Shown: positions 6,646-14,862 of the stretch, in pieces
How the letters are laid out: the number at the start of each line of letters is the position of its first letter
Position numbering within the stretch: position 1 is the stretch's first letter
Origin: Candidatus Latescibacterota bacterium
GTDB lineage: Bacteria; Latescibacterota; UBA2968; UBA8231
Length of the DNA stretch: 64,000 nt
NCBI GenBank assembly: GCA_965223905.1
Contig: CBDCXV010000010.1
Span: 288,001-352,000 of the forward strand
Direction: 5' to 3'
The notes under the pieces: generated by a model
The model's input: the letters and a program-made list of their open reading frames with translations, nothing else
The model's database searches: none
What the model was told of the DNA's origin: nothing
Translations under genes and position numbers: made by a program

Positions 6646-7164
6646 CTAATCGAAGATTTCGTCTTCCCGGAACCGGGTCCAGGATTTGAAAACCGGAAAG
6701 GGGGAGGGCAGGTTGTTTCCAGGATCTTTCAGCTTGAAGGAGATCCTCTCCGGGTCGGATACATTCCGGATCGAGATCGAGAACCGCGAGGTTGGAATGC
6801 AGTCCACGCACTCTTTAGGGAACTGCCTTCTCGAGCCCGGTTCGTCGGGATGAATGGTGATCACCGATGTTCCTTCCTGCTCGATGCGGTAACCTTCCGC
6901 AGACACCTCCCACTCGGAAACCGCTCGGTCATCTTCGGAATACTGAGCCCAGAGGGTGATCCCATCGAAGAAATCGAGGACGACTGCTTTTCTTCGATCC
7001 GCGTCCCTGGAAGGCTCGAACTGCCGGAAGGAGCGATCCTCCAGCTCGGTCTTTATCTGCTCTTCTTCCGTTCCGCTGACAGGTTGAGCCGGATCCTCTT
7101 TCCCGCACGAAGAGTCGAGAAGGAGAACGGAGGCGAAGGCAAGGGACTTCCACCATCGCCGCAT
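6646..7164 (-). CDS. Hypothetical secreted protein or lipoprotein
   Basis: MRRWWKSLAFASVLLLDSSC signal-like N-terminus inside track ORF 6646..7551. Confidence 0.55.
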   Translation of the reverse strand: MRRWWKSLAFASVLLLDSSCGKEDPAQPVSGTEEEQIKTELEDRSFRQFEPSRDADRRKAVVLDFFDGITLWAQYSEDDRAVSEWEVSAEGYRIEQEGTSVITIHPDEPGSRRQFPKECVDCIPTSRFSISIRNVSDPERISFKLKDPGNNLPSPFPVFKSWTRFREDEIFD

Positions 7165-7492
7165 CCTCGCACTTCGCAACAGGAGGGGTTCATTATTGAA
7201 CTGTTGGATCCCGGTGGATTTCACTCGGAACCTCCTTTTCGGACGCCTTGATCTGTGTGGACCCGGCGGGGAATTGCATTCCCGAACGTCGCCATTTTCG
7301 CGTGGTCCCGAACCGAGAATCGGCTGGGCGAAACCGTGGTAGGTGCGCCGCGTCGGCTGTTTCCGGCGATCGCGCATCCCATCCAGACTGCTACCGATTC
7401 CTGTTCGACTCGACGGACCCGCCCCTGTTCCGGGGACTTCCAAGGCACCTGACAAAACATGCCGGCCCTCTCGCAGCGGCGGCGCTCGTTTT

Positions 7493-8854
7493 TCAGATGT
7501 AGCCGAAAAGCGGCGGGAAGAGAACGGCGACGACTCCCGCCCAGACGGCATAAACCGGCAGGTAGGCGGTCTGCCAGCGCTCCAGGACGGAGAAGGGGCC
7601 GCTGCCGCGCAGGAAGCGCACGTACAGCCAAGCCGACCACCCCAGGTTGACGAGCAGGATGAGATTCTCCCCGAGGGCCGCCACCTTGTTGGCGCTGAAG
7701 CCGAACTCGGAGATGCGCGCCGCGATCGCGGCCAGGGCCGCGGCGTCGGCGGCGAGGGCGGCGATCAGGAGCAGGAGCTGAAGCAGGTCGAAGAGGCCGG
7801 GAGGCGCCCCGGGGTCGCGCGCGGAGACCGCGTACAGCAGCATGCCGAGTACGAGCACCAGCAGCAGGTCGAAGCCGATCAGCACTTCCCGCTCCACCTC
7901 GATTCCGCTGCCGGTCCAGGCCATGGCCCCCAGGAAGGCGAGCAGGACCGCGGCTAACAGCGGCGTGAACAGGCGCGTCAGCATGGGGGCGATGTTCCCG
8001 GCGACCGTCTGCCTGACTTCCGCCAGCCAGGCGGCGACGAGGACCGCCCCCATGGCCCCGCAGGGCAGCAGCAAGGGTCCAAGCGACTCGATGTCGAGAC
8101 CGATGCCGGCGAACATCATCCCCGTAACCCCCGTCAGCACGCCGCCTCCGAGGGCGATGAGCACGTAGTAGATGAACATCTCCCCGGAGAAACGCACGAA
8201 CTCCATGCGCCGGCCCGAGGAGCCCCAGCGGCCCCCGGTGTGGGCGACGCCGACCGCCAGCCAGAGCGCTATCGGCAGGTGCAGCGCCGTGAGCACCTCG
8301 GTGGCGCCCTCCGGCGAGAAGGGGTAGATGTTGGCGAAGAGGGCGGCCGCGGCGAACGGCAGGGCCAGCCGCAGGCAGTGGGCCCTGCCGAGCCGGCGCT
8401 TCCAGGCGAAGTACCCGGTCAGGAGGATCAACGCCAGAAGGCCGAGGTTGCGGGCGTAGAAGCTTTCGCAGCCCTCGAACATCGAGCAGCCGAACAGCTC
8501 GGGTACCTTCATTGCCACGGCGCCCGCGACGGCCAGCCCGAGGACGACCGCGGTCTCCCCGGGAACGGTCCGGGTCGCAGCCGCGACGGGGCCGGCGACG
8601 AGTTGCTTCCACAGGCCGGCGGCATCCGCCGGGGCGAACCTGCCCGACTGCGGGTCGACGCTGCCGGTCCGCTTGACCGCCACCAGGAATGCTTCGTCTG
8701 GGTCCAGTCCGGCCTGCTCGAGTGCCGCGGCTTCCTCGCGCAGGAGGCGCTCTCGCTCCTCCAGCTCGGACTCGGGGATTCCCCGGCGCCCCACGCAGGC
8801 GCGCCACTCGGAAATCCGCGCTTCGATACCGTTGCTGGCTTTCCCTGTCGTCAT
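7493..8854 (-). CDS. Permease prefix domain 1-containing membrane protein
   Basis: GLDPDEAFLVAVKR.G prefix followed by many hydrophobic segments. Confidence 0.85.
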   Translation of the reverse strand: MTTGKASNGIEARISEWRACVGRRGIPESELEERERLLREEAAALEQAGLDPDEAFLVAVKRTGSVDPQSGRFAPADAAGLWKQLVAGPVAAATRTVPGETAVVLGLAVAGAVAMKVPELFGCSMFEGCESFYARNLGLLALILLTGYFAWKRRLGRAHCLRLALPFAAAALFANIYPFSPEGATEVLTALHLPIALWLAVGVAHTGGRWGSSGRRMEFVRFSGEMFIYYVLIALGGGVLTGVTGMMFAGIGLDIESLGPLLLPCGAMGAVLVAAWLAEVRQTVAGNIAPMLTRLFTPLLAAVLLAFLGAMAWTGSGIEVEREVLIGFDLLLVLVLGMLLYAVSARDPGAPPGLFDLLQLLLLIAALAADAAALAAIAARISEFGFSANKVAALGENLILLVNLGWSAWLYVRFLRGSGPFSVLERWQTAYLPVYAVWAGVVAVLFPPLFGYI

Positions 8855-9314: not shown

Positions 9315-10761
9315 CTTCCTCGGGACAGGACAGGAATATCGCTTATGCCCGGAACTCCGGGCAGCAACCCTCAGCGTGGGCTAGGCTCTTGGCTCCCGAC
9401 TACCGCCCAATTTCCGTGCTTTAGTTGAAGAACCAATCGAAGAGTACTCCTAAGAGGCCAACAACAAATGCGCTTAGTGCGATTACGCGAACGAAATACC
9501 AGACAGTATTCATGAAATCCCACAGCCTATCTTTCCAATGCTTCTTCAAAGGTGATCTCCCTCCTCCCGACCTAACTAAGATATCGTGACCCTATGCCGG
9601 GATTACCCATGACTGCTGAAAACCGGATAGAACGGATGGAAGCGCGGATCCGGGAGGCAGGCGAGCTGGCTTCCGACTTCGCCCGCGATCCGCACCGGCC
9701 GGCCTGGCACTTCACGCCGCCGGCCGCCTGGATGAACGACATCAACGGCGCCCTCTACTGGAAGGGGCGCTACCACATCTTCTACCAGCTCAACCCGGAC
9801 GGGGCCTACTGGAACCGCATCCAGTGGGGGCACGCCTCGAGCGCCGACCTCGTGCACTGGGTCCACCATCCTGTGGCGCTGACGCCGGAAGCGGACGGAC
9901 CGGACCGCATCGGCTGCTTCAGCGGCGGCGCCCTGGTCGACAAGGAAGGAGTTCCGACGCTCATCTACTACGGCAACCCCGACGGCCTCTGCCTCGCCCG
10001 CAGCAGCGACGACCTGCTGCTCGAGTGGACGAAAGACCCGGGCAATCCCGTGATCCCCCAGCCGGAAGAAGGGAGCGCGGACTTCGGCCGCTACACCATC
10101 CACGACCCCTGCGGCTGGTTGGAGGGCGGCCTCTACTACGCCGCGGTCAACAGGCGTGACCCTCAAGGCCAGGGGGACGGGGCCTACCTGTTCAGATCGC
10201 GGGAACTGCGGAACTGGGAGTTCGCCGGCCTGTTCTACCAGTCCCGCCGGGAGTGGACGGAGGGAGGCGAGGACTGCGCCGTGCCCGACTTCTTCCCGCT
10301 CGGCAACCGGCACCTGCTGCTCTTCTGCAGCCACCTGCAGGGAACCCAGTACTACATCGGCGAGGTCCGGGAGGAACGGTTTTACCCGGACATCCACGGG
10401 CGCATGAGCTGGGAAGGGGGCCATCTCGGCGGGCCGCGGACCCTGCTCGACGCCCAAGGCCGGCGCGTCTTCTTCGACTGGATCCGCGAGCTGCGCGGCG
10501 TCGAGCGGGAGCGCGCTTCCGGATGGTCCGGCGTCATGACCGCCCCGCGGCTGTTGTCGCTGGATTCGGACGGTCACCTGCAGATCGAACCTGCACCGGA
10601 GCTCGAGGTATTGCGGCTGGATCAGGGCGGGCACGGGCCCGTTGACCTGGCCGCCGATTCCGAGGTGCCAGTGGAAGGGGTCGGCGGCGACTGCCTGGAG
10701 CTGGCAGTCGAGATCGATCCGCTGGTAGTCCCTCAGTTTGAAATATTCTATATTGAGAAGA

Positions 10762-10801
10762 GTGAGGTCCCCCCTGCAATACCATCCGGGGGGGACCTCA
10801 C
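10762..10801. other. Strong subterminal hairpin
   Basis: GTGAGGTCCCCCC pairs with GGGGGGACCTCAC (13 bp). Confidence 0.8.
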
Positions 10802-10804
10802 AGT

Positions 10805-10873
10805 GGGGCAGGCTTAGTGCGCCACCGGGCTTCCGATCCTGGCTAGGCGAGGGTTCGATTCCCTCCTGCTCCA
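10805..10873 (+). tRNA. Atypical tRNA-like cloverleaf (nominal anticodon TCC, Gly); not a canonical tRNA
   Basis: Acceptor GGGGCAG/CTGCTCC+A; T arm GAGGG-TTCGATT-CCCTC; anticodon arm CCGGG-CTTCCGAT-CCTGG; reduced D arm without U8 or GG; no encoded CCA. Confidence 0.7.
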
Positions 10874-10898
10874 CTTTCTCTTTTCCAAGAACGCCGTC

Positions 10899-11747
10899 AT
10901 GAACCGCCTGCTTCTAAAAAAGCGCGAGCTCATCCTGAAGTGCCTTGTGGACGGAATGTCCTTGCTGGCCACTTCGCGCATTGCCTGTGTCGCTGAAAAC
11001 ACCGTAGCGCGATTGCAGCTTCTCGCCGGCGAAGTCGCTTGCGACTTTCAGGACGAACATTTACGCAACCTCAAACTGGACAGCATCGAGCTCGACGAAA
11101 TCTGGTCGTTCGTGTACGTCAAACAGAAACGTCTCGAGCAGGCGAAGCGACCACCGGAAAACGCCGGCGACTCGTGGGTCTGGATAGCCATCGACCGAAA
11201 GACCAAGCTGGTCCCCTGCTGGTTAGTGGGCGGACGCTCACAGGAAGATGCCAATCTCTTCATCGAGGACCTCGCGCAACGGTTGTCAGGAGCTCCACAG
11301 CTGACCTCAGACGCCTACGCTCTCTACATCGAAGCTATCTATCGAGCCTTCGGTTCTCAAGTCGATTACGCCATGCTGAAGAAAGAGCACAAGCCCGACT
11401 CGCCTTCCCGCAAGACGCGCATCTCCGGCGATCCGGACGACGATCTCATTTCCACCTCGATTGCGGAACGGCAGAATCTTACCATGCGCATGTCGATGCG
11501 GCGCTTCACCCGGCGTACCAACGCTTTCTCGAAACGATTTCGCAATCACGCCTTTGCCGTCGCGCTCTACTACCTGAACTACAACTTCTGCCGTGTCCAT
11601 CAGACCATCGAAACCACTCCGGCCATCAAAGCCGGGGTGACGAATCGTCGTCTGTCTCTTCTGGAAGTGGCTCAGATGACGTTAGAAGCCGAGCCAAAAC
11701 CGAATCGTCCGAAACGGTATCGGAAACAGAATCGCGATTATCGATAG
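10899..11747 (+). CDS. IS1-family DDE transposase, single ORF with N-terminal HTH
   Basis: LDEIWSFV (D), TSDAYALY (D), AERQNLTMR (E), RFTRRTNAFSK and YNFCRVH motifs. Confidence 0.92.
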   Translation: MNRLLLKKRELILKCLVDGMSLLATSRIACVAENTVARLQLLAGEVACDFQDEHLRNLKLDSIELDEIWSFVYVKQKRLEQAKRPPENAGDSWVWIAIDRKTKLVPCWLVGGRSQEDANLFIEDLAQRLSGAPQLTSDAYALYIEAIYRAFGSQVDYAMLKKEHKPDSPSRKTRISGDPDDDLISTSIAERQNLTMRMSMRRFTRRTNAFSKRFRNHAFAVALYYLNYNFCRVHQTIETTPAIKAGVTNRRLSLLEVAQMTLEAEPKPNRPKRYRKQNRDYR

Positions 11748-11831
11748 CATCTCCGACAGCTTTGGCAAACTGGATCGGGTAATCTTGGCGACCGATGTTA
11801 TGCCGTTTTCCCAGCGAAATTCTTGCTTTCG

Positions 11832-12086
11832 TCATACTTCCTCCATTTGTTCGCGCAACTCCCTGCGAAGCTGAGGAATGGTGATGACCTTGGCGGCCAA
11901 ACTGGCGTTTTGTCCCTGCAAATCATCCAGCTGGGCATGCATCACCTGAAAACCTTCCCGCATTTCCTTTTCCAGCCGATCGAAGCGCTGGTCCATCTGC
12001 TCAAAACGCTTGAGCACCTTCTGATTGAACGCTTCCTGAGCATCGAAGCGCTTGAGCATCTCTTTCTGGAACTCTTCCTGGCTCAT
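11832..12086 (-). CDS. 84-aa coiled-coil microprotein (passenger)
   Basis: GAGGA RBS; paralog of 12115..12381 (KRFEQMDQRFD, LAA.V.T.P.LRRELRE). Confidence 0.75.
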   Translation of the reverse strand: MSQEEFQKEMLKRFDAQEAFNQKVLKRFEQMDQRFDRLEKEMREGFQVMHAQLDDLQGQNASLAAKVITIPQLRRELREQMEEV

Positions 12087-12114
12087 TCCGGCATTCCTCA
12101 CTTGATTCGAGGTT

Positions 12115-12381
12115 TCATGCTTCCTGGAGCTCCCGTTCGCGAAGTTCCCGGCGTAACGCCGGAACAGTCACTATAGTAGCAGCCAACCCGGCTAGCTGGG
12201 ACTGCATGTCATCCAGTTTTTCCTCGACGTGGTCGAAGCGCTTGTCCATTTGCTCGAAGCGCCGAAGAACTTCCTGATTGAACTCTTTCTGATCCTTCTG
12301 GAACTCCAACATCTGATTCTGGAACTCCAACATCTGATTCTGGAACTCCAACATCTGATTCTGGAACTTTTCCTGGTTCAT
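12115..12381 (-). CDS. 88-aa coiled-coil microprotein with FQNQMLE heptad repeats (passenger)
   Basis: GGAGGA RBS; ATG overlaps the peptidase stop (ATGA). Confidence 0.75.
   Translation of the reverse strand: MNQEKFQNQMLEFQNQMLEFQNQMLEFQKDQKEFNQEVLRRFEQMDKRFDHVEEKLDDMQSQLAGLAATIVTVPALRRELRERELQEA
12296..12368. repeat. 21-bp perfect tandem repeat x3.5 (coding)
   Basis: TTCTGGAACTCCAACATCTGA at 12296, 12317, 12338 and partial at 12359. Confidence 0.95.
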
Positions 12382-13634
12382 TCCGGTATTCCTCCACGTA
12401 AAGGATAGCGGCCAACACCGCAGCGCCAGCGAGGTTCGCCGGCCGTCACCTTGGCCGACCGAGGCGGAACCTGATAGGGTTCGGCTCGAGACACGTCCAC
12501 CTCGTATCCCAGATCCGCTAGCGCCTGAATCGTAATCAGGCTGAGAGGACGAATTTCGTCCGAGACGGCTCCGGACGTCATGATCTCGTTCCCCAGAACG
12601 TCTTCTCGCCAATGGGAGAAATAGTTTCCGTTCTCGACCGGCACTCCTTTTCTAGCCGCACGCGCCCTTTCGCGATACCATCCGCCTCCGGCTGACTCAA
12701 ACGCCGCTCTGCTCAAAATTCCCTTGAAGTAGGTGTCGGCATTCAGAGAACGATTGACCAAGCGCTCGTCCCACTCTTCTCCTCCCTGTAGCAGGATGTG
12801 ACCCAATTCATGGATCATCGTACGAAACACGTGAGAATCGGATTCAGAGCGAATAAACTCGGAATCCAGAACCACGAGGCCGTTGATGGCAACTCCGGAA
12901 GAAGATCGAAACCACAAAGTCTGAGCACTGCCGTTTACGCCGTACCCCAAATCAGCGGTAGTTGCATGAACGCGCACGTCGTCGATAAGATCATTTTCTA
13001 CAATCCTTCCAAACCACTGCTCGTGAGCACTGCCGGCCCACCAGGACATGTCGTCGGTATCCAATGTATGCCAGGCGAAATAATACCTGTCCTGGACATC
13101 GTTCGTAACGATCCGCTCCCACGTGACCGCGGCGCGCTCGAACAGCTCCCGATGGCGGTCGGTGAACTCGTTGCCTTCGGCGAACACGAGCTCGATGTCG
13201 AACAGTGAAGGTCTCAGGGGCAAACCGATCCCGTAGGGGTTGGACACACCGGAATCGGCCATCTCCGCCCAGACGTAGGCGCCCAGCAGTCCCAAGTCGA
13301 TCCATCCGGTGACTCCGTCCCGGTCGATGTCGAGCAAGTCCAGATCCAGAGGAACATGGTACCAAGGACTGGAGAGATGAATCCAGAGTCCCTCCACGTC
13401 GAAAATGTTCACCCACCCGTCCACGACCCCGTCTCCCAGAAGGCGTCCATCCACCGTCGCCTTGGGGCTGCCCCGCTCGCTAGACGGCCGCTGGATGGGC
13501 AACTCGATCCCCCGTTCAGCAAACCAGGTTCTCATTTCAGTGTACGCTTGCTCCCTGTCGGGCTCGTGTACCCGTGAGGGCGACTCACAGCCGGCCAGCA
13601 AGACCGACAACAGCAGGAGGATGGTGGCAATCAT
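12378..13634 (-). CDS. Leishmanolysin-like (M8) zinc metallopeptidase lipoprotein with a dockerin/EF-hand-like segment (passenger)
   Basis: LLAGC lipobox; DIDRDGVTGWIDL; HELGH; SHWRE...NEIMT Met-turn; SLITIQALADLGY. Confidence 0.85.
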   Translation of the reverse strand: MIATILLLLSVLLAGCESPSRVHEPDREQAYTEMRTWFAERGIELPIQRPSSERGSPKATVDGRLLGDGVVDGWVNIFDVEGLWIHLSSPWYHVPLDLDLLDIDRDGVTGWIDLGLLGAYVWAEMADSGVSNPYGIGLPLRPSLFDIELVFAEGNEFTDRHRELFERAAVTWERIVTNDVQDRYYFAWHTLDTDDMSWWAGSAHEQWFGRIVENDLIDDVRVHATTADLGYGVNGSAQTLWFRSSSGVAINGLVVLDSEFIRSESDSHVFRTMIHELGHILLQGGEEWDERLVNRSLNADTYFKGILSRAAFESAGGGWYRERARAARKGVPVENGNYFSHWREDVLGNEIMTSGAVSDEIRPLSLITIQALADLGYEVDVSRAEPYQVPPRSAKVTAGEPRWRCGVGRYPLRGGIPE

Positions 13635-13840
13635 CCTTGTCCCCTTCCCGTGTGTGCCCGAGAAGCCGGGCTGTGCCACCGTCCACAGCAGTCCGGGACG
13701 ATCCCGCTTATTTGCGAGACGCCAGGGTAATTACTCCCGGCGCCGGGATTTGATTCGCTGTTGTATTCAGCAGGAAACCCGGCGACACGCAGGGTCCGCT
13801 GTGAAACGGTGGCATCTGAGAACATACGCAAAATACCCAC

Positions 13841-13870
13841 TTGACAATAGTTAGTGTCCTTTCTGTCTTT
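13841..13870 (+). promoter_or_regulatory. Possible sigma70 promoter upstream of the rod-shaped repeats
   Basis: Perfect TTGACA at 13841; -10 match poor. Confidence 0.35.
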
Positions 13871-13881
13871 CTGCGCCTCTT

Positions 13882-14032
13882 GGACCGGTGACCCCCCCAC
13901 CACTGACAGGGCTACTCACCCTGGGCATTTCGAGAATCGACACCCCGTAGCACGAGGTGAGCAACGCAGAGGATGTCGATTTCTCTCCCTTGTGGGCCTT
14001 GTCAATCCCAGGTGTGCGGTGGTCACCGGCCC
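13882..14032. ncRNA. Candidate structured element, rod unit 1 (151 nt)
   Basis: Closing stem GGACCGGTGACC/GGTCACCGGCCC; TGACAGGGCTAC/GTGGGCCTTGTCA; GAGAATCGACA/TGTCGATTTCTC. Confidence 0.6.
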
Positions 14033-14049
14033 TCCTTTGATGAACATTT

Positions 14050-14196
14050 GGGCCGGTGACCCAACCTGCCACCTGCCAAAGCTACTCGTCCGGGAAGAAT
14101 AGAATCGATACTCCGCAGCACGAGACGAGCAACGCAGAGCGTATCGACTTCCCTTCCTGTGAGCCTTGTCAATCCCAGGCAGGCGGTCACCGGCCC
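14050..14196. ncRNA. Candidate structured element, rod unit 2 (147 nt), diverged copy of unit 1
   Basis: GGGCCGGTGACC/GGTCACCGGCCC; CCTGCC/GGCAGG; GGGAAG/CTTCCT; ATCGATAC/GTATCGA. Confidence 0.6.
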
Positions 14197-14199
14197 TCC

Positions 14200-14236
14200 T
14201 TTGCCGAAACCAGTGAGGAGATCGGTTTCGGCAAAA
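14200..14236. terminator. Subterminal hairpin, possible terminator
   Basis: TTTGCCGAAACC/GGTTTCGGCAAA 12-bp stem just inside the right TIR. Confidence 0.5.
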
Positions 14237-14862
14237 GACAGATCCAAATTTCAAACTGAGGCATTACCGATCCGCTGGAAGCGAAGGAGGTGGGACTGAA
14301 GGTGCTGCGCTCTCCTGGAGGCGAGGAGGAAACCGCAGTCTCCTGGGACGCCGAGGCAGCGGTGCTGCGGGTCGACCTCAGCCGGTCGTCCCTCGACCGG
14401 GAGATCCGCTACACCCGCTACCGAAGGCTTCAGCCGCACCTGACGGAGAGCGAGCAATACGTCACCGCCCAGGAGGGGCCGTTCGAGCTGCAACCAGGGG
14501 AGCTGCTGACCCTGCGAATCTTCCTCGACCGCTCGATCCTCGAGGTCTTCGCCAACCGCCGGCAATGCGTGACCCAGCGCATCTACCCGACGCGGCCCGA
14601 CAGCACCGGCGTCAGCCTGTTCGCGCGCGGGGGCGATGCCAGGGTGCGGTCGCTGCAGGCATGGACCCTGGCGCCGGCGCGGATGTGATACCCTTTGGCG
14701 TGAGGCCATTTGTCTCGGGCGAAACACCCCTTCGCCAGCGCAGACCTGACTTTCCTTGCCGTAGGCAGGGCCACCTGGTTCGGCGGAGGCCCCGGCTCCA
14801 AGGGTCCAAGGGGCTCTCGGCCTGATCCCGCAGGACAACCAGATTACTTCAGGACAAACGGA

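Follow-up and report, generated by a model that had tools for sequence, protein, structure and literature searches.

A 64,000-nucleotide stretch of the genome of a Candidatus Latescibacterota bacterium (assembly GCA_965223905.1, contig CBDCXV010000010.1, positions 288,001 to 352,000; in the following, the window) contains one transposable unit at positions 10724-14268 that was recently inserted into a gene for a glycoside hydrolase of family 32 (GH32) and is strain-specific. Judged from its sequence, the unit is a distant member of the IS1 family of insertion sequences (IS). Just upstream of its transposase gene it carries a short RNA that derives from a host-type tRNA-Ala(CGC), and comparison with homologous elements shows that a tRNA or tRNA-like gene in this place is a recurrent type of cargo in this IS1 clade. 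The best explanation overall, which we think slightly more probable than its opposite, is an IS1 cargo unit in which the tRNA-derived module acts in cis and further cargo is encoded on the minus strand.

Positions are those of the window unless a locus or contig label precedes them; L labels denote loci and G labels genomes. The window's own genome, G000, comprises 7.9 Mb in 11 contigs, and G001 belongs to the same genus. The ends and the left part of the element are laid out as follows.

9594..10723, plus strand: 5' part of the interrupted GH32 gene (Glyco_hydro_32N, E 8.8e-57; collinear with the orthologues in G001 and G002)
10716..10723, no strand: left target-site duplication, 8 bp, GATCCGCT (repeat search and reading of the sequence; single copy in the orthologue)
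10724..10744, plus strand: left inverted repeat (IRL), 21 bp, GGTAGTCCCTCAGTTTGAAAT (repeat search; the motif also terminates related elements)
10762..10801, plus strand: 15-bp hairpin directly before the tRNA-like RNA (-33.2 kcal/mol, z -5.87, 0 of 200 shuffles as good)
10805..10873, plus strand: tRNA-like RNA, 69 nt, a reduced derivative of tRNA-Ala(CGC) (fold, Rfam, alignment to the host tRNA-Ala(CGC))
10899..11747, plus strand: single-ORF DDE transposase of the IS1 family, 282 amino acids (aa) (PF03400)
14248..14268, minus strand: right inverted repeat (IRR), 21 bp, GGTAATGCCTCAGTTTGAAAT on the minus strand (repeat search)
14269..14276, no strand: right target-site duplication, GATCCGCT (reading of the sequence and repeat search)
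14277..14688, plus strand: 3' part of the interrupted GH32 gene (in frame with the 5' part after removal of the element)

The element measures 3,545 bp. IRL and IRR are complementary at 19 of 21 positions, IRR starting with GGTAATG and IRL with GGTAGTC, and the whole 3,545 bp are bracketed by the 8-bp direct repeat GATCCGCT. An initial annotation of this DNA, made from the sequence alone, had proposed the same 21-bp repeats and the same duplication, and the repeat search confirmed them. It had also stated that the GH32 gene is restored when the element is taken out. This proved correct; in-silico removal of the element together with one copy of the duplication leaves a frame of 513 aa without a stop, and the restored protein aligns gap-free over 511 aa with the same-genus orthologue L114 at 89% identity. 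The orthologue is uninterrupted and has the target site once.

The annotation had further proposed that the insertion is recent, and that GH32 sequences with an empty site be looked for. Contigs with an empty site were found in all four of the runs examined: two contigs in run X1 (shorter side 21 nt), one in X3 (127 nt), one in X5 (151 nt) and three in X7 (38 nt). Their joint omits exactly 3,553 bases (10714 to 14268, with 11 ambiguous bases). The unbroken GH32 allele, which contigs from three other sequencing runs contain, thus exists among related populations; the insertion is accordingly a recent one and specific to the strain, and the uninterrupted orthologue agrees with this. The filled and the empty allele form a clean natural pair. 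There is one full copy of the element in the 7.9 Mb of G000, and its G+C content is 0.56 vs 0.63 in the flanks.

The basic element of the clade is about 1-1.1 kb long, with IRL some 18-30 nt before the start codon, so one could argue that a plain IS of about 1 kb lies here beside unrelated DNA with a solo inverted repeat, or that the cloverleaf in front of the transposase is a chance fold. However, the 8-bp duplication brackets all 3,545 bp, the empty-site contigs are short by exactly 3,553 bases, and a search for the repeat motif within the element found no additional copy. As for the cloverleaf, its acceptor stem and T loop are letter-identical to those of a host tRNA-Ala. The duplication, the contigs and this identity contradict a composition from two pieces or a chance cloverleaf, and we consider either to be extremely improbable.

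The transposase scores 30.8 bits against PF03400 (DDE_Tnp_IS1), above the cutoff of 24.1. Against the NCBIfam equivalog NF033558 it scores 54.2 bits, under the cutoff of 100, and we therefore place the element among the distant members of the family. At least 7,999 proteins match the transposase at E <= 1e-10, the best of them, itself excluded, with 54% identity; where the source databases name these homologues, the name is IS1 family transposase. Every residue that is at least 93% conserved across 45 homologues is retained, including D66, D138 and E190, which are invariant among these homologues. The initial annotation of an IS1-family cargo transposon with an intact DDE transposase is thereby borne out.

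Members of the IS1 family have terminal inverted repeats of about 20-25 bp, beginning GGnnnTG, and generate target-site duplications of 8-9 bp. The element has DDE transposase homology, 21-bp repeats and an 8-bp duplication. The terminal motif GGTAGTG..TCAGTTTGAAA is common to the ends of its relatives, and 8-bp duplications flank seven of them. The classical arrangement of two reading frames, insA and insB', joined by frameshifting was not found; the transposase is one uninterrupted open reading frame (ORF), so the element is grouped with the single-ORF, probably ISMhu11-type, members of the family. According to ISfinder-based reviews, ISMhu11-type members span a range of sizes and carry passenger genes, a description with which the architecture seen here (single ORF, passenger genes, 3.5 kb) presumably agrees. 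The likeness to this group comprises the DDE signature, repeats of about 21 bp starting with GGT, the 8-bp duplication, one long ORF without a frameshift and extra genes between the ends. What sets the present element apart is the tRNA-derived RNA upstream of the transposase, together with structured RNA units.

The exact transposase sequence was found nowhere on record beyond its own contig, and scans of genome and metagenome contigs gave relatives at 47-51% only. The conserved transposase segment 11476-11622 had a very high summed contig depth, 127-207, in all four runs examined, indicating that many related IS1-like copies are present in those communities.

Two further IS1-like sequences are found in G000. 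A decayed sister copy lies on the minus strand at C10:1286950-1287598 (L011 about 6950-7599). Its two remaining pieces are 84% and 65% identical at the amino acid level (about 80% at the DNA level), and its transposase has an internal deletion of approximately residues 72-187. IRL lies 18 nt before its start codon and a small antisense ORF is conserved; hairpin, tRNA-like part and cargo are absent. The basic element is therefore about 1 kb long, and the extra sequences at the left and the right of the present element are additions. The second one, at C11:742597-744518 (L010 5598-7519), is about 1.9 kb long and has a transposase 47% identical to that of the element. Its transposase is followed by two small ORFs, of 98 and 104 aa, as well as some 370 nt of non-coding sequence, which includes a perfect hairpin of 13 bp beside the right end.

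The tRNA-like RNA is predicted to fold with an acceptor stem of 7-8 bp containing G3:U70, followed by A73, a 5-bp T stem with the loop TTCGATT, a 2-bp remnant of the D stem and an anticodon-like hairpin with an 8-nt loop. CCA is not encoded. The acceptor stem GGGGCAG/CTGCTCC and the following A are identical to those of the host tRNA-Ala(CGC), and the stem is also that of the host tRNA-Ala(UGC). In alignment with tRNA-Ala(CGC), no change is seen at 22 positions (14 in the acceptor, A73 and 7 in the T loop). One T-stem pair is altered on both sides, the D arm has deletions of 2 and 7 nt, and the anticodon arm differs as well, with about 75% identity overall. G3:U70 and A73 are established identity elements of tRNA-Ala, and both are present in the sequence. 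The alignment shows descent from a host-type tRNA-Ala(CGC), and the lack of any change in the 22 positions makes an even decay unlikely.

This RNA is not a canonical bacterial tRNA with a full cloverleaf that tRNA detectors recognize. ARAGORN called no gene in the whole window, also in its metazoan-mitochondrial mode, and lowering its thresholds to 85% gave a flood of calls that still missed the RNA. The Rfam matches at 10805-10873 stay below gathering: mascRNA-menRNA reaches 28.8 bits vs 42.5 (E 0.0076, full model length), and the best match of the tRNA clan, the selenocysteine tRNA, 25.7 vs 47. The tRNA-like cloverleaf that was initially annotated is therefore confirmed as a fold, but it lies below the tRNA thresholds of ARAGORN and Rfam, its D arm is reduced and its anticodon loop has 8 nt.

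Homologous transposase loci were collected from 168 genomes of the window's phylum (34 places, among them four identical copies in G123) and from a sample of 401 genomes of a second phylum, the Chloroflexota (31 loci examined). Some loci bear two labels (L054 = L029, L055 = L051, L056 = L024, L053 = L022). Of these about 65 elements, 10 (five in each phylum) have a tRNA or tRNA-like gene in front of the transposase, 27-352 nt from its start. In at least six of them (the present element, L054, L055, L056, L076 and L077), the gene is bracketed by the two inverted repeats and by an 8-bp duplication; L053 has inverted repeats that match at 18 of 20 positions, without a duplication. Full tRNAs were detected by ARAGORN and Rfam on the transposase strand of L022, L029, L076 and L077, at distances of 65-127 nt, and of L082, at 352 nt. 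The genes found in the relatives are:

L022, 2458-2549, minus strand: long variable arm, anticodon TAT, CCA encoded, Rfam tRNA 64.8 bits
L029, 2432-2507, minus strand: G3:U70 and A73, anticodon TAT, CCA encoded, Rfam tRNA 70.9 bits
L076, 1858-1945, minus strand: long variable arm, anticodon AGG, CCA not seen, Rfam tRNA 51.3 bits
L077, 1153-1239, plus strand: long variable arm, anticodon TGC, CCA encoded, Rfam tRNA 53 bits
L082, 817-909, plus strand: long variable arm, anticodon TAG, CCA not seen, Rfam tRNA 51.4 bits
L051, 1264-1335, minus strand: reduced Ala type with G3:U70 and A73, anticodon TCA, strand opposite to the transposase
L066: reduced Ala type, matching both ends of the Rfam transfer-messenger RNA (tmRNA) model at 37.7 bits, below the gathering score of 47
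L073: reduced Ala-type tRNA-like gene upstream of the transposase
L024: weak selenocysteine-like tRNA-like gene, strand opposite to the transposase

A strict minihelix detector (7-bp acceptor stem, 5-bp T stem and TTCRA loop, with C or T permitted at the first T-loop base) gave nine distinct places in 467 kb of loci. In eight of these, a transposase starts 27-163 nt further downstream; the ninth, in L038, lies 496 nt upstream and is doubtful. On both strands of the whole 7.9-Mb genome the detector gave 43 matches other than tRNAs, mostly with CTC loops, from which about 0.07 chance matches are predicted in the upstream windows. In the five Ala-type copies, G1-G4, G3:U70 and A73 are invariant, and pairs 5, 6, 7 and 50 differ by two-sided changes. 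A strong hairpin (z <= -2.5) precedes 7 of the 10 IS-borne tRNA or tRNA-like genes.

The initial annotation had suggested an undescribed RNA-carrying IS1 subfamily, and that it be checked whether the RNA structures are conserved in homologous elements. The tRNA-like part recurs in this way, but the rod-shaped units at the right end (described below) were found in none of the homologues, and the sister copy lacks the tRNA-like part as well.

The unit is a single-ORF IS1 element that has grown into a 'transporter IS' of 3.5 kb; its transposase acted on the two 21-bp repeats, the whole unit was inserted into the GH32 gene and the 8 bp were duplicated. The concept of a transporter IS, an IS with passenger genes between its ends, is set out in PMC3129680. 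For the module before the transposase we suggest the following. The tRNA-like RNA of the present element would no longer decode. It would instead act in cis, as a tRNA-shaped processing and insulating signal on the transposase transcript. The hairpin, together with cleavage by RNase P and at the 3' end, would free the transposase mRNA from transcripts that read through from GH32, and the released minihelix may also accept alanine. We favour the role in cis because the module ends 25 nt before the start codon, has the hairpin in front of it and sits at the end that faces the promoter side of GH32, and because the portion that has been retained is what RNase P and the 3'-end enzymes need of a tRNA.

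Several observations weigh against this interpretation. A scan of 10500-14500 for sigma-70-like promoters gave no sites. The invariance of G3:U70 points to the alanyl-tRNA synthetase (AlaRS), whereas cleavage by RNase P and 3' processing are independent of this pair, so that processing in cis leaves it unexplained. For the same reason, an alanine-accepting minihelix with a role in trans is conceivable. In L022, L029, L076 and L077, promoter-like hexamers can be seen by eye between the tRNA and the start codon of the transposase; in these elements the two may be separate transcription units. The tRNA-like genes of L051 and L024 lie on the strand opposite to the transposase. About 55 of the 65 homologues, including the closest relative, the sister copy, have no tRNA module, which means that transposition does not require the module. 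On a quick IQ-TREE phylogeny of 49 transposases (pseudogenes with stops, L055, L056, L057 and L084, as well as duplicate loci and L074 left out), the elements with a tRNA fail to group in a single clade. Each tRNA type needs at least three changes on this tree, no better than with shuffled labels. Carriers are thus scattered, so gains, losses or swaps must be frequent; for example, L076 with its long-arm tRNA stands beside L066 and L073 of the Ala type and L088 without a tRNA. Finally, the rods are known from two copies only, and palindromes can be maintained by processes at the DNA level.

A possible, though in our judgement distinctly less probable, explanation is that the tRNA-like piece is a functionless, decaying relic of a host tRNA-Ala that was captured via a surrogate left end, and that the rods are a neutral duplication of a palindrome that arrived with the protease operon. 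The silence of ARAGORN even in its mode for tRNAs without a D arm, the Rfam scores below gathering, the deletions in the D arm, the 8-nt anticodon loop and the missing CCA all suit a relic. An acceptor stem shared with the host tRNA-Ala(CGC) and tRNA-Ala(UGC) is consistent with local capture, and the sister copy without a tRNA-like part and the rods, which were found nowhere else, point the same way. However, the changes are uneven, sparing the acceptor, A73 and T-loop positions completely. The same reduced Ala-type architecture is found in L066 and L073 from the other phylum, with compensatory changes in acceptor and T stem and with G3:U70 kept. In the rods, all ten pairs that differ between the units stay paired, and a pairing biased towards one strand is not expected of DNA palindromes.

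Another possibility is a function of the IS-borne tRNAs in trans, either in translation or in the transfer of aminoacyl groups. Complete copies would then supply or reassign rare codons ending in A or U, or UGA, and reduced copies would, as alanine-accepting minihelices, feed or titrate processes that depend on AlaRS. The complete cloverleaves with encoded CCA in L022, L029 and L077 speak for this, as do the anticodons called by ARAGORN: TAT in two different bodies (L022 and L029), TCA in L051, AGG in L076, TGC in L077 and TAG in L082. L029 and L051 have G3:U70 and A73, and G3:U70 is invariant in the five Ala-type copies. The nearest tRNAs of G000 are those for leucine in the case of L076 and L077 and for serine in that of L082, and the alanyl-, seryl- and leucyl-tRNA synthetases (AlaRS, SerRS and LeuRS) do not read the anticodon. 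But the copy in the window, with no D arm and an 8-nt loop, is incapable of normal decoding. The assignment of body types is weak (65-75% identity) and was judged against the tRNAs of G000 rather than those of each element's own host, and L029 is overall nearest to arginine and valine tRNAs. ATA codons per 1000 inside vs outside the element number 16.0 vs 4.9 in L053 and 5.4 vs 5.9 in L054, noisy and inconsistent counts that include spurious ORFs. The transposase of L024, with an in-frame TGA where homologues have tryptophan, and the broken transposase of L051 look like pseudogenes rather than cases of recoding. All in all, we find a role in trans quite unlikely.

It should be noted that the anticodons fit the bodies poorly: TAT (L029) and TCA (L051) accompany acceptors of the Ala type, and the bodies with a long variable arm have TAT (L022), AGG (L076), TGC (L077) and TAG (L082). 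The tRNAs of L022 and L082 are alike although their hosts belong to different phyla. One may speculate from these sequences that an IS1 clade present in at least two phyla has a standing tRNA module built from bodies whose synthetases ignore the anticodon (Ala, and long-arm bodies like those of Ser or Leu) and with mismatched anticodons (UAU twice, UCA, AGG, UGC, UAG), by which recoding, suppressor or mistranslating tRNAs would be spread. In some lineages, including the present element, the module would have shrunk to a minihelix that accepts alanine and serves a new purpose other than decoding. We regard this scenario as a long shot, if a slightly better one than the role in trans just discussed. 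Two of the loci merit description. The transposase gene of L024 (1501-2286, genome G059) has one in-frame TGA, at a position where homologues have tryptophan. That of L051 (1501-2455, genome G146) has breaks in the frame and an AT-rich insert, and the adjacent tRNA-like gene with the anticodon TCA would read UGA.

Comparison with known systems helps to place the module. It shares with the minihelix of tRNA-Ala and the tRNA-like domain of tmRNA the bases G1-G4, the pair G3:U70, A73, the 5-bp T stem, the loop TTCGA and a reduced or absent D arm. It differs from tmRNA in having no tag reading frame, no pseudoknots, no encoded CCA and a retained anticodon-like hairpin, and it is only 69 nt long. 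The real tmRNA of the genome was located elsewhere by ARAGORN, at C11:1830621-1830975. The mascRNA and MEN-beta elements, which gave the best Rfam match, also have a tRNA-like fold with a poor D arm, and they offer a model in which such an RNA lies inside a longer transcription unit and RNase P and RNase Z define its ends. They are, however, eukaryotic and not related by descent, and the match of 28.8 bits is below the gathering score of 42.5.

Transfer RNA genes are also carried by other mobile DNA such as phages, plasmids and integrative elements, where they often serve codons that are rare in the host. Here, in contrast, the carrier is a DDE insertion sequence of 2-4 kb with a single tRNA per element, in a fixed place before the transposase, and several copies are predicted not to decode. 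Arrays of tRNA genes on plasmids have been discussed as a counter-defence (PMC12803027).

The bridge RNA of IS110 and the omega RNA of IS200/IS605 are likewise products of non-coding RNA genes within an IS, beside the recombinase gene. These RNAs pair with target and donor DNA and are required for the reaction. The present element differs in that its inverted repeats and target duplications are of the classical kind, and since its closest relatives have no RNA, there is no indication of a guide role.

Downstream of the transposase, and convergent with it, the element contains a minus-strand operon that spans 13634-11626:

12378..13634, minus strand: 418-aa lipoprotein with dockerin-like DxDxDG repeats and an M8 (leishmanolysin)-like HExxH metalloprotease domain (Peptidase_M8, 20.8 vs 21 bits)
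12115..12381, minus strand: coiled-coil protein cc2, 88 aa, with three 7-aa repeats (21-nt repeats in the DNA); its ATG overlaps the protease stop (ATGA)
11832..12101, minus strand: coiled-coil protein cc1, 84-89 aa, a paralogue of cc2 (about 43-46% identity)
11626..11835, minus strand: 69-aa ORF of uncertain gene status; its ATG overlaps the cc1 stop (ATGA) and its 3' part is antisense to the 3' end of the transposase gene

The two ATGA overlaps, and the short gap between cc2 and cc1, suggest an operon that is translationally coupled. The protease scores 20.8 bits against PF01457 (Peptidase_M8; cutoff 21, E 1.7e-4) and contains HELGH. Among 50 homologues other than itself, 36 match PF01457 and 4 match PF00404 (dockerin). 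A signal peptide followed by LLAGC, MIATILLLLSVLLAGCESP as read from the translation, agrees with the lipobox L-[AS]-[GA]-C. Searches gave no PDB sequence match at E <= 0.5 and no PHROG match for the protease. The M8 lipoprotein and the two coiled-coil paralogues of the initial annotation hold up in order, lipobox, HELGH and paralogy, but the M8 assignment is borderline when the protein is taken alone and gains its support through the relatives. The convergent operon was likewise annotated correctly except for the fourth frame, at 11835-11626, which was missing. No Pfam or PHROG match was found for this 69-aa ORF, and over 28 aa it is 50% identical to the same position in the sister copy.

The protease domain family has matches in 59 of the 168 genomes of the phylum (G000 included), with up to 11 per genome. 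Since the domain is so much expanded in the host phylum, the gene was probably picked up there, and capture via a surrogate right end would be the most likely route. Matches to the domain often lie inside ORFs of 1,000-4,000 residues, such as C2:136595-137464 of G000 within an ORF of 4,128 aa.

The coiled-coil protein cc1 is 44% identical over 52 aa to an ORF inside an IS1-like element of G001, which suggests that small proteins of the coiled-coil type are a recurrent accessory of the clade. A word-based search with the coiled-coil proteins recovered only the query itself. A profile search gave 3,523 proteins at E <= 1e-3, mostly through repeated coiled-coil stretches, and among nine top matches that were scanned two passed a Pfam cutoff, that of DUF7310. 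The element of G001 (L058, 6338-8483) has its coiled-coil homologue, which contains RFEQID repeats, upstream of the transposase.

Cargo differs in every relative examined, although all of these are distant (best transposase identity, apart from the element itself, 54%), which limits the comparison of the same element with other cargo. In two loci from Chloroflexota metagenome-assembled genomes, L032 (4364-6897) and L034 (4913-6897), the cargo lies upstream of the transposase as well. L032 includes there a 407-aa ORF resembling a DNA methyltransferase-HNH protein. The two share a small conserved ORF of about 60 aa with the motif KGG.ARA..L..E.R..IA..AA..RW.

The region between the operon and IRR holds the following features.

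13694..13790, minus strand: copy of a short repeat family, about 60-150 nt upstream of the protease start; the family also occurs elsewhere in the genome and the phylum
13878..14036, minus strand: rod unit A, a long imperfect hairpin (folding and repeat comparison)
14046..14200, minus strand: rod unit B, a long imperfect hairpin (-79.0 kcal/mol, z -5.87 on the minus strand)
14197..14238, no strand: hairpin of 15-16 bp just inside IRR (repeat search and folding)

The order of parts inside the element (hairpin, tRNA-like RNA, transposase, operon, two rod-folding units, hairpin) is thus as initially annotated. The rod units are tandem, about 155 nt each and about 77-85% alike. Their consensus fold is predicted at -54.6 kcal/mol on the minus strand vs -37.7 kcal/mol on the plus strand. 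Ten of the 47 pairs of the minus-strand fold vary between the units, three by two-sided and seven by one-sided changes, and none is broken. Such a pattern, seen in two copies, agrees with an RNA that is transcribed in the same direction as the operon.

A profile of the two units matched only the units themselves in 121 loci (575 kb) and the own genome. BLAST in the 168 genomes of the phylum gave nothing credible, plasmids gave no match and viral contigs no exact 17-mer. The rods as a trait of the IS1 clade, or of the subfamily proposed initially, are therefore not supported by these searches. Two tandem copies in 7.9 Mb are also not the many scattered copies that characterize miniature inverted-repeat transposable elements (MITE) or repetitive extragenic palindromes (REP). 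In Rfam, 13640-14200 gave no match at E <= 1, and a match to CcsR1 at 14171-14239 (18.9 bits vs 65.3) is at chance level.

The short repeat upstream of the protease is about 90-130 nt long, forms a hairpin and has the core CTGCTGAATACAACAGC. Other copies in G000 lie at C9:438985, C9:859713, C10:74026, C10:865980 and C11:748469, and the 25-nt core recurs, 96% conserved, in several further genomes of the phylum. About 1.1 kb upstream of one copy there is a match to group II intron domains D1-D4 (L120, 3678-3901, 161 bits) and a reverse-transcriptase fragment; no such intron match was found near the other copies.

Insertion sequences are usually viewed as a transposase between two ends, and to our knowledge the passenger genes known so far from IS1-type elements are protein genes. 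IS1 elements with passenger genes are thus a known kind, while tRNA-derived cargo in a fixed place before the transposase is undescribed in the literature searched: we found there no description of tRNA or tRNA-like cargo in IS1 elements, ISfinder lying outside the scope of that search. A tRNA-derived RNA at a fixed place, inside inverted repeats and duplications and in two phyla, would be a new kind of cargo. If the module controls the expression of the transposase, it would represent a new way for an IS to insulate itself against host transcription. Alanylation can be tested directly in the copies that lack an anticodon domain and have the invariant G3:U70. Should the complete copies be charged and decode, tRNAs with mismatched identity and anticodon would travel on a simple IS, and such IS-borne tRNAs would bear on the spread of deviations from the genetic code and of mistranslating tRNAs.

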